A DNA stretch of 4,318 bases. It comes from a virus. Its lineage: Duplodnaviria > Heunggongvirae > Uroviricota > Caudoviricetes. Shown here in pieces: positions 120 through 3,770 of this stretch (positions are counted from its first letter, which is position 1; every line of letters starts with the position of its first letter). The stretch lies in the IMG/VR virus record IMGVR_UViG_2698536313_000008. One strand, given 5' to 3'. The translations under genes and the position numbers were made by a program. The notes below the pieces were generated by a model. That model was not told the origin of the DNA, ran no database searches, and saw nothing but the letters and a program-made list of their open reading frames with translations.

Positions 120-467
120 TTACGGCAGCGCCGCGTGACTCAGGGCACTGCCGGTAAAGGCGTTGGCCTTTTTGTGTTCATCCACACTTTCAGGCCAGCG
201 GATTGCCTCCGTCGCAAAGGTCCCCGACTTGTAATACGTCAGCACCGCCTCTGTGCCTTCAAGCGGCAGTACCAGTATGCCAACCGCACTACCGGCTTTC
301 TGTCCATCCCAGACAACCAGTTTCCCGCTGGCTTCATCCAGCATCAGGGGCGTCAGTGCCGGTGTTGCCTGAGAAATCCCGCTGCTGCCTGTGGCGGTAT
401 GAGCCGGATCATTACCGGCAAAAATACGTACTTCTGCACGTTGTTCAGTGATGGTTTTCGTTACCAT
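120..467 (-). CDS. D: Head decoration protein (lambda gpD family), 115 aa
   Basis: Translation contains DPAHTATG, TPLMLD, KLVVWDG, AVGIL and YKSGTF blocks that align with lambda gpD (about 110 aa, from memory). ATG at 467..465 is preceded by GAGG about 10 nt upstream; TGA stop at 122..120. Confidence 0.9.
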   Translation of the reverse strand: MVTKTITEQRAEVRIFAGNDPAHTATGSSGISQATPALTPLMLDEASGKLVVWDGQKAGSAVGILVLPLEGTEAVLTYYKSGTFATEAIRWPESVDEHKKANAFTGSALSHAALP

Positions 468-503: not shown

Positions 504-1319
504 TCATGGCATGGCCATGAGCATTTTCACGTCCGCATCACCGTCTGCTGACGTCTGTGACACGCCACCCCGCACCGCTGCCGGTGAATGATTCGCCATG
601 AAATGTTCAAACAGGGCGGTTGTGGATGCAGAGACCGGTTCTGCTTTATCCGGCGATGAGGACAGAATGTCGCGGGCAGCCTCCACCGTCATTCCGGGAA
701 ACGCCGCCAGTTTTTCAGCCTGCGCCTCAGCCCCTTTTGCCTCATCCAGAGCCATAATCTGATCACGGAGTGAGGGTCCGGCATCCGCCAGTGGTGCAGC
801 CGCAAGGATCGGGCGGGCTTTTTCCACCGTCATCTCCGGCATCGCCGCCAGCGTTGCCGCCAGTTGTTCACGACCTTTAGCCTCTTCACACGCCATAATG
901 CGATCGGCTTCACTCTGCGTGGATGCCACCGGCTGCTGTGGTGCTGCCGCGGTCAGAATCGCCCGGGCCTGTTCAACGCTCATGCCCTGTTGTCCTGCCA
1001 GCATCGTGGCAAGGTGTTCACGTCCTTTCGCTTCCTGACACGTCAGGATCCCCATCACTCGCTGGTTCTCCTGCGCGGCAGCTTCCGTTGCAGTTAATTG
1101 CGGCATAGTGCCTCCTGTATCATGTGTGTTCAGCGCCGCAGCCATCACGCTGATGGCATCCGACGCATTGATTAATTCATCCGCCAGCCCGGCCTCAATG
1201 CCGGACTGACCTTCAAAAACGGCGGCCTCTGTTCCCGTGACTGCATCAACAGACAGACCGGTATACATCGCCACTTTTTCGGCAAACATCCGGCGCGCCG
1301 CATCAATCCGCTGCTGCAT
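504..1319 (-). CDS. Nu3: Nested in-frame scaffolding protein (lambda Nu3-like), translated from an internal start of C; 271 aa if it begins at Met231 of C
   Basis: In lambda, Nu3 shares frame and stop codon with the 3' part of C. Here the internal ATG at 1319..1317 opens MQQRIDAARRMFAEKV, matching my recollection of the lambda Nu3 N-terminus, with AGAGG about 11 nt upstream. Other in-frame ATGs at 1289..1287 and 1268..1266 are alternatives. Start assignment is by analogy only. Confidence 0.5.
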   Translation of the reverse strand: MQQRIDAARRMFAEKVAMYTGLSVDAVTGTEAAVFEGQSGIEAGLADELINASDAISVMAAALNTHDTGGTMPQLTATEAAAQENQRVMGILTCQEAKGREHLATMLAGQQGMSVEQARAILTAAAPQQPVASTQSEADRIMACEEAKGREQLAATLAAMPEMTVEKARPILAAAPLADAGPSLRDQIMALDEAKGAEAQAEKLAAFPGMTVEAARDILSSSPDKAEPVSASTTALFEHFMANHSPAAVRGGVSQTSADGDADVKMLMAMP

Positions 1320-2009
1320 GTCCTGGCGAACCTCTGCCGGCAACGCTTCAAACTGATTGCCATCCACCTTGTGCGCCCCTGAGTAAATCAGCGTGATATC
1401 CACACCGGCCTGCGCCAGATGACCGGCATAGCTGACATGGCTCATCATCACGCCAATGGAGCCGATACGGGATGTCTGGGTAACCAGCCGTCGGGAGCAG
1501 GCCGACGCCAGCAGCATGGCTGCAGAACAGGCCGTGTCATTGCACAGTGCCCAGACCGGCTTCTGCTGACGGAGGCGGTAAATCATGTCAGCACAGTCAA
1601 ACGCACCGGCGGCCTGCCCGCCCGGACTGTCAATGTCCAGCAGTACACCCCGCACCTGGCTATCCGCCATTGCCTGCTGAAGACAGGCGACAATGCCGTC
1701 ATAGCCTGTCATTCCGGAAAATGGCCGCATACCCCCCAGCCGGTGCACCAGCGTGCCTGTCACCGGCAGTACAGCAATACCGTTCACCACCCGGTAAACA
1801 CGGGCCGGTCGTTTACCTCCGGCCATGTACTCGTCCGTTTCAGCCAGCATTCCGGGTGCATCAAGCTGTACCTGCTGTTGTGGTACCGAAAGACTTGCTG
1901 CCCCCATCTCGCGCCCGAGCGCGCAAAAGAAAACCCGCGCATAGGCGGGCTCCAGAAGCAGCGGTTCATTGAATGCTGCGGCAATAATGTGTGAAAGATT
2001 ACGTCTCAC
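504..2009 (-). CDS. C: Prohead protease / scaffold fusion protein (lambda gpC family, S49/ClpP-fold peptidase N-terminal domain plus scaffold C-terminal domain), 501 aa
   Basis: N-terminus MRRNLSHIIAAAFNEPLLLEPAYARVFFCALG matches the lambda gpC N-terminal region. Conserved blocks PVWALCNDTACSAAMLLASACSRRLVTQT, IGSIGVMM and ITLIYSGAHKVDGN fit the S49 peptidase family. Start is a GTG at 2009..2007, 10 nt after a GAGGAG Shine-Dalgarno, and it overlaps the portal 3' end by 11 nt (lambda B/C also overlap). Confidence 0.88.
   Translation of the reverse strand: MRRNLSHIIAAAFNEPLLLEPAYARVFFCALGREMGAASLSVPQQQVQLDAPGMLAETDEYMAGGKRPARVYRVVNGIAVLPVTGTLVHRLGGMRPFSGMTGYDGIVACLQQAMADSQVRGVLLDIDSPGGQAAGAFDCADMIYRLRQQKPVWALCNDTACSAAMLLASACSRRLVTQTSRIGSIGVMMSHVSYAGHLAQAGVDITLIYSGAHKVDGNQFEALPAEVRQDMQQRIDAARRMFAEKVAMYTGLSVDAVTGTEAAVFEGQSGIEAGLADELINASDAISVMAAALNTHDTGGTMPQLTATEAAAQENQRVMGILTCQEAKGREHLATMLAGQQGMSVEQARAILTAAAPQQPVASTQSEADRIMACEEAKGREQLAATLAAMPEMTVEKARPILAAAPLADAGPSLRDQIMALDEAKGAEAQAEKLAAFPGMTVEAARDILSSSPDKAEPVSASTTALFEHFMANHSPAAVRGGVSQTSADGDADVKMLMAMP
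621..1058 (-). repeat. Three diverged tandem repeats (about 141-150 bp, 47-50 aa each) inside the scaffold domain of C/Nu3
   Basis: Protein units begin ILTCQEAKGREHLATMLAGQQGMSVEQARAILTAAAP, IMACEEAKGREQLAATLAAMPEMTVEKARPILAAAP and IMALDEAKGAEAQAEKLAAFPGMTVEAARDILSSSP. The matching DNA is visible on the plus strand, for example gttcacgtcctttcgcttcctgacacg at about 1015..1045 against gttcacgacctttagcctcttcacacg at about 866..892, roughly 80 percent identical. Confidence 0.8.
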
Positions 2010-3591
2010 GTGGTGTTGTCTCCTCTTCCGGCCTGCGACTCTCCGCTATCTGCTGCTGATACGCCTGCGCTATCCACACCGGACGTGAGAGTCCAGCTTT
2101 TTCCCGCTCTGCAGATTCCCTGACCTGCTGGCGGAAAATGTCCTGATAATCTTCGCCCATCAGCGCCAGCTCTTTCTCATACGTGCTCAGTCCGGCCTCA
2201 ATGCGCATCACTGATTCCTGAACCTCCTTGAGCCCGTCAATGGCCATTCTTCCGGCTCCAATCCACTCAGCCCGTGACCAGGCTGATCGCGCCTGATAAA
2301 AATCAAAACGTGCCCGTGGCGGACGGATAATCCCCCGAAGAAGTGCCTCTTCCAGCCAGCAGGAAAACATCTGCGTGGCCAGCCGGGACGCAATAAATTT
2401 TCGCCGCCCCATAAAATAGCGCCACGACTCATTGGCGGATGCGCGGGCACTTGAGTAACTGACCTTCGAGTAATCACGGGACAACTGTTCGTAGGAAACG
2501 CCAAGACCGGCGGCGATATACCGCAGCAGCGCCTGTTCAAGCGCCGAAAATCCATTGTCTGAATCCTGCGCGGTCTGAAGTTTCAGATCATCACCGGGGA
2601 AAAGGTGCGGAATTTTGACACCGCCCAGCGTCACGCTATTCGTGTCATACCAGGTGGAGAACTTATCCAGAATATTAATAAGCGGATTATCCTTCTGCCC
2701 CTGCGGCGCACCGGCGATATATTCAAAGGCCTTTTCGGTATCAAGGTCACTTTCAATCGTCGCTGCATACATCGCCTTCACTATGGCCGACTGAAGCTGT
2801 GTTGCCTGCAGGGAATCCAGCATCTTCAGCCGTTCCATAACGCTGTAAAACTGATTGGCTCCACGGGTCTGCCCGTCCTCCACCGGCTCGAAAATATGCA
2901 GCATGGCCGGACGCCCGGTGGGTAGTTCACGCGGGATCCGTTCCCATCGTCCACTCCCGGAGCGAGGAAAATCATCCTCACAGATATGGTACGCAACGGC
3001 ACGGCCATATCGATCAACCTCCACACCGGCCCGCAGAAAACGGTTCCCGATACCGTGTCCTGGCGTGTCCACCCGTTTCGGACTCACGGCTTTAAAACGC
3101 GTACGAAACAGTTGCGTACTCTCCGTATCCCAGACCGGCTGCACAAAGATTTCGCCGTTAAACGCATGAACGCCCACACCTTCACGGATAAATTCCGTAA
3201 ACGTGCGTTTCCCTTCCACGTCGATCTCACCAAACATCCCTTCTGCGTATTCTGACCAGGCCGCCTCCACCTCATCGACAAAACTTTTTGCCGCGGTCTC
3301 CCGCATCCCCAGCCAGCGCCAGTTCGGACGGTAGCTGATCAGAAACATATGCCCGACAATGTGATCCTTATGCAGGGCCACCGCATTGGCCGCTATTCCG
3401 TTATTGCGCACCAGATCATCTGCACGGGCATTCCCCAGACGCAACGCGGGCAGCAGGGCCGCATCGGCACTCTGCGAGGGTGGCAACCACTCCGCCATTT
3501 GCCCGCCAAATCCTGCACCGCCACCGGTGTAGCTGAGGCTCTCCCGAAGCGGAACGCCGTTCACATCAATCAGGACAGGCGTTCGTTTCAT
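1999..3591 (-). CDS. B: Portal protein (lambda gpB family), 530 aa
   Basis: Translation aligns along its length with lambda gpB (533 aa): GNARADDLVRNNG, FEPVEDGQTRGAN.FYSVME, LQSAIVKAMYAATIES, LLRYIAAGLGVSYEQLSR, YSSARASANESW.YFMGRRKF, WIG.GRMAIDGLKEVQE and IEAGLSTYEKE. ATG at 3591..3589 overlaps the W stop as ATGA, with GAGG 4-5 nt upstream. Confidence 0.93.
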   Translation of the reverse strand: MKRTPVLIDVNGVPLRESLSYTGGGAGFGGQMAEWLPPSQSADAALLPALRLGNARADDLVRNNGIAANAVALHKDHIVGHMFLISYRPNWRWLGMRETAAKSFVDEVEAAWSEYAEGMFGEIDVEGKRTFTEFIREGVGVHAFNGEIFVQPVWDTESTQLFRTRFKAVSPKRVDTPGHGIGNRFLRAGVEVDRYGRAVAYHICEDDFPRSGSGRWERIPRELPTGRPAMLHIFEPVEDGQTRGANQFYSVMERLKMLDSLQATQLQSAIVKAMYAATIESDLDTEKAFEYIAGAPQGQKDNPLINILDKFSTWYDTNSVTLGGVKIPHLFPGDDLKLQTAQDSDNGFSALEQALLRYIAAGLGVSYEQLSRDYSKVSYSSARASANESWRYFMGRRKFIASRLATQMFSCWLEEALLRGIIRPPRARFDFYQARSAWSRAEWIGAGRMAIDGLKEVQESVMRIEAGLSTYEKELALMGEDYQDIFRQQVRESAEREKAGLSRPVWIAQAYQQQIAESRRPEEETTPRET

Positions 3592-3770
3592 AACCTCACT
3601 CCCAGCGGACGACGGCGACGGCGGGTTGTCCCCAGTACCGACTCCGCATCATTGATCGCCCGGTTAAGCTCATCCAGAGAAGCTGCCGTATATTCAATTC
3701 TGCGACCATCTTTCTGGACAGACACCACCCGTTTACCGGTTAATAAATCAAGGCGCGCCTGACGCAGCAA
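3588..3770 (-). CDS. W: Head completion / head-tail joining protein (lambda gpW family); 3' end certain, 5' end uncertain (provisional TTG start at 3770..3768, about 60 aa)
   Basis: The C-terminal 61 residues of the 149-aa track ORF (PLLRQARLDLLTGKRVVSVQKDGRRIEYTAASLDELNRAINDAESVLGTTRRRRRPLGVRL) align with lambda gpW ([24 protein letters not shown]...RRRGP). Stop TGA at 3590..3588 overlaps the portal ATG. No in-frame ATG or GTG exists at the position predicted by homology; the nearest in-frame candidate is this TTG. The rest of the 149-aa ORF is out-of-frame overlap with terminase, not W. Confidence 0.6.
   Translation of the reverse strand: MLRQARLDLLTGKRVVSVQKDGRRIEYTAASLDELNRAINDAESVLGTTRRRRRPLGVRL

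Follow-up and report, generated by a model that had tools for sequence, protein, structure and literature searches.

The window analysed here, the whole stretch of 4,318 nucleotides, is a head operon of the phage 21 type encoded on the minus strand, with the genes for terminase A, W, the portal, gp5/gp6 and shp. The products gp5/gp6 are homologues of lambda C/Nu3 and shp is the homologue of lambda D. Identity to the head operons of phage 21 and of related E. coli phages and prophages is 96–99%, which assigns the 501 aa-long protein of the window as gp5 of a phage-21-type head module, homologous to lambda gpC. The S49 protease gene is flanked in the window by a portal gene upstream (Pfam PF05136) and by a head decoration gene downstream (HDPD, PF02924), and the capsid gene comes next in the gene order of phage 21 and E. 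coli prophages. The 3′ part of the peptidase gene was found in 1870 of the 5426 complete E. coli genomes (about one third). The genes and the features of the gp5/gp6 region outside the repeats are the following.

3′ part of the terminase large-subunit gene, minus strand
gpW homologue, minus strand
1999-3591, minus strand: lambda-family portal gene (Pfam PF05136)
504..2009, minus strand: gene 5 (lambda C homologue), S49 prohead protease fused to a scaffold region, 501 aa (ORF list, Pfam)
1131..1574, minus strand: S49 peptidase domain (Pfam, aa 146-293; TIGR00706, aa 78-290)
1111..1116, minus strand: Shine-Dalgarno sequence AGGAGG for gene 6, a few bases 5′ of the ATG (from the sequence)
504..1106, minus strand: gene 6 (lambda Nu3 homologue), nested in frame, 200 aa, starting from Met302 of gp5 (ATG at 1106-1104)
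507..638, minus strand: C-terminal tail that follows the repeat units, aa 458-501, with conserved FEHFM...SP...DADVKMLMAMP (alignment, AlphaFold2)
120-467, minus strand: gpD-like head decoration gene (HDPD, PF02924)

Phage 21 (M81255; also OL657228) has the same gene order and the same nested proteins of 501 and 200 aa, with ~96% nucleotide identity to the window. The window is a prophage-type variant that differs from phage 21 by a 60-bp deletion at the A/W junction. The missing segment (window 3768|3769) is present in phage 21, in the PhiR12 phages and in E. coli FDAARGOS_144, and it is kept in all 12 best complete-genome matches. Its loss takes the last 17 codons and the stop codon of the terminase large subunit, and deprives the gpW homologue of its ribosome-binding site and of its first 9 codons. 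Reading on to a stop at 3748-3750, the A frame acquires the new tail AASGAP, and W is left in the window with no start codon of its own. This points to a prophage that is defective or to a sequence that was edited. The same junction is damaged in a prophage that carries a 482 aa-long form of gp5 (see below): an IS200-type gene (Y1_Tnp) lies there between the terminase large subunit gene and W (L009, 2697-3155), and the W ORF is called as 58 aa instead of the usual 68.

The earlier note had taken the ORF at 504-2009 for a C/Nu3 protein of 501 aa. It does encode a protease-scaffold protein of this type, with an S49 domain and 53% identity to lambda gpC; its position and length match gene 5 of phage 21. 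The match to Peptidase_S49 (PF01343) has an E-value of 4.2e-35 and 121 bits against a cut-off of 24.9, while TIGR00706 (E = 1.4e-31) stays under its equivalog cut-off, as expected of a phage paralogue. Ser162 of gp5 (NDTACSAA) aligns with Ser166 of lambda gpC (NDMNCSAG), which is reportedly the nucleophile in the work of Medina et al. in 2010. The internal ATG preceded by AGGAGG is a predicted separate start for the scaffold protein gp6, and at the equivalent place gene 6 or a scaffolding protein and its ribosome-binding site are annotated in M81255 and OL657228. Gene 6 contains all three repeat units described below and the C-terminal tail. Since the units lie 3′ of the internal start, they are carried by the protease (gp5) and by the scaffold (gp6) alike.

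Downstream of the gene 6 start the coding sequence carries three in-frame units.

942..1049, minus strand: unit 1, aa 321-356, ILTCQEAKGREHLATMLAGQQGMSVEQARAILTAAA (Tri1 box of phage 21)
792..899, minus strand: unit 2, aa 371-406, IMACEEAKGREQLAATLAAMPEMTVEKARPILAAAP (Tri box of phage 21)
651..758, minus strand: unit 3, aa 418-453, IMALDEAKGAEAQAEKLAAFPGMTVEAARDILSSSP (Tri3 box of phage 21)

In the GenBank entry of the phage 21 head gene operon (M81255), a Tri1 box, a Tri box and a Tri3 box are marked within gene 6 as repeat_region features, all with the remark “function unknown; putative”. They span positions 1436-1539, 1289-1399 and 1145-1258 of that locus, equivalent to 936-1039, 789-899 and 645-758 of the window (the offset is 500, with no indels across the repeat stretch). 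The three units of the window are these Tri boxes. The triple repeat reported in the earlier note is thus correct, and it was already known, having been annotated decades ago, which the note had missed. A search of the literature for a text describing the Tri boxes found none. OL657228 has in addition “CII binding sites” of the pattern TTGYN6TTGY annotated on the plus strand at the equivalents of window 854-867 and about 1088-1101; one of them falls in unit 2, antisense to gene 5. Both are pattern matches only, with no sign of a function.

The units are ~36–40 aa long, start at aa 321, 371 and 418, are spaced 50 and 47 aa apart, and share in gp5 the signature IxxCxEAKGRExLAxxLAxxPGMTVExARxILxAAP. 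This agrees with the description in the earlier note of three tandem copies with a common signature, all of them within 621-1058 where it had placed the repeat. Pairwise protein identity between units is 47–61%. Their local alignment scores are 73–99 compared to 26 ± 5 for composition-preserving shuffles (z = 9.9–15.6), as true repeats and not as a low-complexity stretch rich in Ala and Glu. The in-register nucleotide identity is 67%, 52% and 64%, which corrects the ~80% that had been proposed. When split by codon position, identity is 64–83% at positions 1 and 2 and 25–42% at position 3; third positions are therefore near random and conservation works at the protein level. Tandem Repeats Finder detected no array in the region and a direct-repeat search gave only seeds of 15–17 nt (families D12 and D15). 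This does not contradict the protein repeat, as the units are too diverged in their DNA for such tools to see an array.

Unit 3 is the most diverged one and has the nearly invariant Arg10 replaced by Ala. Position 4 of the unit is a cysteine in units 1 and 2 (Cys324 and Cys374 of gp5; window about 1038-1040 and 888-890) and a leucine in unit 3. The cysteine is found in 11 of 21 aligned units across distant phages; its conservation is unusual for a small cytoplasmic helical module. The last helix and the linker of unit 3 (window 639-690) read VEAARDILSSSPDK where phage 21 and most relatives have VE(S/N)ARAVLAAGSGK, the phage 21 sequence being VESARAVLAAGSGK. This dense patch of substitutions, in a gene that is otherwise 96–99% identical, looks like a small mosaic or gene-conversion patch.

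Lambda gpC shares with gp5 the S49 protease (53% identity over the protease), the nested-gene logic and a unit followed by a similar tail. It is 439 aa long and has exactly one unit (aa 364-403, ILNCEEAHGREEQARVLAETPGMTVKTARRILAAAP), in line with the earlier note, which had described it as a shorter protein with fewer units. The linker ahead of the lambda unit is ~35 aa longer than in the window, so that it partly offsets the two extra units which account for the greater length of the 501-aa protein. Lambda Nu3 begins within the protease domain, at aa 239, and gene 6 of the window only just past it, at aa 302.

A profile of the unit (A1; 40 columns, built from 21 copies) has the consensus IxxCxEAKGRExLAxxLAxxPGMTVExAxxxLAAAP, in which 14 of the 40 positions are invariant or nearly so. 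It matched 1410 representative proteins at E ≤ 1e-3 among 1.84 billion, and the unit occurs in at least 1,400 protein clusters at 50% identity. One unit is present in 137 of the best 150 representatives, two in 10 and three in 3, in a set that is biased toward multi-copy proteins; most relatives do not share the three units of gp5. S49 fusions have the unit close to their C-terminus; otherwise it is found in short proteins of scaffold size. The latter are nested-gene calls, fragments or standalone scaffolds taken together, among them two one-unit proteins encoded on contigs of 0.5–1.4 kb (P0104 and P0106). Among the records of the phage collection, 128 have a match to the three-unit region: about 108 match a single unit only, including lambda, 434, N15, phi80, HK629/630, DE3 and Stx1a phages, and 20 cover the region fully, those sampled being phage 21 and close relatives. 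Head protease genes of Chi-like, Klebsiella, Proteus, Xylella, Vibrio and Pseudomonas phages also have the unit. It matches PHROG clusters 53, 8399, 8940, 17040 and 16406, with the annotations head scaffolding, capsid assembly or head maturation protease, three times each. Pfam searches with gp6 and with the consensus unit gave nothing below E = 0.1, gp6 had no match in NCBIfam, and a PDB sequence search gave nothing significant. In lambda-like head modules the unit is the hallmark of the C-terminal, Nu3-type scaffold region that S49 prohead proteases carry. One unit is the common state, as in lambda, 434, N15, phi80 and Chi-like phages, and three units characterise the phage-21/Gifsy-type lineage. 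The triple repeat is ordinary for the phage 21 group.

The units are followed by a tail with a median length of 48 aa after the last unit in the best 150 representatives. Homologues from E. coli, Salmonella and metagenomes display in it the pattern F(E/D)xFM...SP..V...D.D...L(M/L)xxP, and the analogous part of lambda reads LDRLM...DLLNTPV. The element that actually binds the capsid, or that the protease recognises, might be this tail.

The three-unit architecture is colinear with the one of Salmonella (Gifsy-type) and metagenomic homologues. The Gifsy-type proteins of Salmonella (P0026, P0029 and P0059) resemble gp5 in unit, tail and S49 fusion, and their three units are orthologous by position. 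The identities of units at the same position in gp5 and P0026 are 0.75, 0.75 and 0.67, compared to 0.44–0.64 for the off-diagonal pairs. Each unit is thus closest to its Salmonella counterpart, which dates the triplication before the split of the E. coli and Salmonella lineages; together with the saturation of synonymous positions this upholds the old expansion that had been suspected. A homologue from a different E. coli lineage, with the same unit, tail and S49 fusion (P0024), differs by having four units that are 75–92% identical mutually. Its units 2–4 reach 81–92%, while units in the window share 47–61%, and this high mutual identity indicates a recent expansion or concerted evolution in that protein.

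Length alleles were collected from close relatives with more than 80% identity to gp5.

451 aa: fusion of unit 1 to unit 2 inside EAKGRE
452 aa: loss of unit 2, with the junction at AAAPQ
472 aa: unit 2 without its first half
482 aa: unit 2 without its second half (“2.5” units)
498 aa: unit 2 shorter by 3 aa
551 aa: one additional unit of 50 aa (4 units)
657 aa: duplication of 156 aa

Unit 2 is the one missing or shortened in the alleles of 451/452, 472 and 482 aa. According to DNA alignments the units recombined at short stretches of homology: the junction is at CGTGAACA in the 451-aa allele and at GCGGC in the 482-aa one, and that of the 551-aa allele adjoins a shared ATGAC, three codons out of register. 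Copy number still shifts by unequal recombination at homologies of 5–8 nt between units. The proposal that the repeat is a site of recombination-driven length variation is well founded on the alleles of 451/452, 472, 482 and 551 aa, whose junctions lie between units. The alleles of 451 and 482 aa are found in head-tail modules whose other genes look intact, and 3592 indexed blocks of the assembly collection contain a protein identical to the 482-aa form. Two assemblies are the source of the 551-aa allele; the terminase ORF at its locus has 692 aa instead of 642 and no Pfam match on record. In one of them (L012, 6000-6300; GCA_900537015.1) an N occupies both ATGACN positions that flank the duplicated 150 nt. 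Such undefined bases at junction-like positions make this allele less certain, as the extra unit could be an assembly ambiguity; the second assembly encodes the same four-unit architecture (P0109).

Allele frequencies were estimated in a spread sample of complete E. coli genomes, taking the best match per record. The best match was unbroken over 645–647 nt in 58 of 60 evenly sampled records, a 57-nt deletion was found in one of the 60, and no more than 4 of 1875 records had a best match with less than 80% coverage. Complete E. coli genomes thus have predominantly the form with three units, and length variation is at the level of minor alleles. Two other E. coli proteins, of 721 aa (P0190) and 577 aa (P0195), follow gp5 to the middle of unit 3 and continue with an unrelated C-terminal sequence, rich in Gly and His and reminiscent of tail-fibre proteins. 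These fusions indicate rearrangements that break inside the repeat region.

The structure of gp6 was predicted with AlphaFold2 using 19 homologues. The model has a mean pLDDT of 70.8 and a pTM of 0.29, with 78–84 for the units and less than 65 for the linkers. Each unit is predicted as a small independent helical motif that opens with a short helix (xEA) and a KG turn, continues with a helix of 8 residues (RExLAxxLA) and, after a PGMT loop, closes with one of 10 residues (VExARxILxA). In unit 1 the helices are at gp6 residues 24-26, 30-37 and 44-53 (pLDDT about 81–84), and a longer helix is predicted ahead of this unit. Helices in the tail (gp6 residues 160-173 and 190-196) have lower confidence. 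A lone unit modelled from the unit alignment shows the same elements with a pLDDT of 79.8. The models suggest, with moderate confidence in the fold, that each unit folds on its own and that units are separated by flexible linkers rich in Ala, Pro and Gln, like beads on a string. Foldseek gave nothing significant (best E = 1.6).

The observation of the earlier note is real except for the DNA identity figure and its interpretation was largely right. The effect of copy number on procapsid assembly that it put forward is conjecture. We consider it probable that the triplicated conserved module is the multivalent protein-binding part of the scaffold in prohead assembly. Each unit would be a protein-binding module that holds the scaffold and the protease inside the assembling prohead, its likely partners being the major capsid protein, contacted on the inner face, other scaffold molecules, or both. 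The presence of three copies would make this binding multivalent, and the S49 protease would degrade the whole unit region after assembly. We infer the binding function from a unit that probably folds autonomously and is under constraint at the protein level. The lambda prohead has ~200 copies of the scaffold and 12 portal subunits. Contacts with capsid or scaffold are favoured because every scaffold copy has the unit and the scaffold far outnumbers the portal. Several points weigh on the other side. The extreme C-terminus of P22-type scaffolds binds the coat protein, so that coat binding might reside in the conserved C-terminal tail and not in the units. Lambda builds the same T=7 head with one unit and alleles with two units exist, which means that three copies are not required and that multivalency may matter little. 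The loss of the nearly invariant Arg in unit 3 counts against a binding module, as do the moderate confidence of the predicted fold and fold searches with no diagnostic outcome. A more ambitious proposal, which we hold only tentatively, is that the EAKGRE unit could be an unrecognised autonomous domain family for coat binding or capsid targeting by lambda-type scaffolds and proteases, whose copy number (1–4) would be a tunable valency adjusted by unequal recombination.

The interactions reported for lambda Nu3 concern whole proteins and include Nu3-Nu3, Nu3-E, Nu3-C and Nu3-B (PMC3224144). They leave room for a different partner: the units might bind the portal/initiator complex and recruit gp4 and the protease to the nascent prohead, the copy number tuning assembly of the initiator. 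Lambda Nu3 is indeed needed for incorporation of the portal protein B, for which a C-B interaction is reported besides Nu3-B (PMC3224144), and in all loci examined the unit was accompanied by a portal of the lambda family. The genes for portal, protease, D-type and E-type capsid proteins are co-inherited, however, so that their co-occurrence does not tell the partners apart. Moreover, a module present in every scaffold copy fits better contacts with the shell, and yeast two-hybrid assays, also with whole proteins, found Nu3-E and not Nu3-B (PMC3224144). We regard binding to the portal as unlikely.

The variation in unit number allows another interpretation, in which the units have no specific partner. 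They would be spacer or filler, tolerated and semi-redundant, on which scaffold length or volume depends, and the tail would be the real interaction element. Natural alleles with 1–4 units in otherwise intact modules, the very common 482-aa half-unit allele included, would fit such a role, as would the flexible linkers (pTM 0.29). It is quite improbable in our opinion given that a pure spacer would not show the codon-position-specific conservation found here, that even distant phages agree, fully or nearly so, at 14 of the 40 unit positions, and that each unit has kept its identity since before the E. coli/Salmonella split. The annotation of the Tri boxes as DNA repeat_region features, and of a CII site in unit 2 in OL657228, could speak for DNA or RNA sites (regulator binding, translational signals) to which the protein repeat would be secondary. 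Little credence is left for such sites: the units have 52–67% nucleotide identity and 25–42% at third positions, homologues with very different DNA retain the amino-acid motif, and the CII annotation is a pattern match. The codon-position pattern led us to reject this reading. That the periodicity is a compositional artefact of a region rich in Ala, Glu, Gln and Pro, in which Tandem Repeats Finder sees no array, or the result of recent slippage or of assembly has a negligible chance: low complexity is refuted by scores 10–16 SD above the composition-preserving shuffles and by the recurrence of the three units in about one third of the complete E. coli genomes and in phage 21, whose sequence dates from the early 1990s, and a recent slippage-type tandem duplication is rejected as units of 52–67% nucleotide identity that form no Tandem Repeats Finder array are too diverged.

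Lambda Nu3 is a textbook scaffold and the unit is its only strongly conserved element. The natural alleles with 1, 2, 2.5, 3 and 4 units in near-identical head modules are ready-made variants of scaffold valency, which might affect prohead yield or fidelity. A unit that acts as a capsid-targeting element would be useful for engineering lambda-based particles and, if this is true, a single unit with the tail could be a portable cargo-loading tag for lambda-like shells.

Other phages anchor the scaffold inside the shell by a small helical hairpin near its C-terminus, as found in P22 gp8 and also in phi29 gp7 and T7 gp9. The helix-turn-helix coat-binding domain of P22 gp8 is a possible functional analogue of the unit, for which coat binding is putative. 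Neither the PDB sequence search nor Foldseek gave a sequence or fold match between the unit and P22-type scaffold domains, and the P22 domain differs from the unit in being single-copy and not fused to a protease. The C-terminal tail of the HK97 protease is said, in the work of Duda et al. in 2013, to target the capsid interior. Together with the cargo-loading peptides of encapsulins it may offer a second analogy, that of a C-terminal element of a cargo or protease which targets the interior of an HK97-fold shell, as proposed for the unit. The HK97 and encapsulin elements are short linear peptides, whereas the unit of gp5 and gp6 is a repeated module predicted to be folded.
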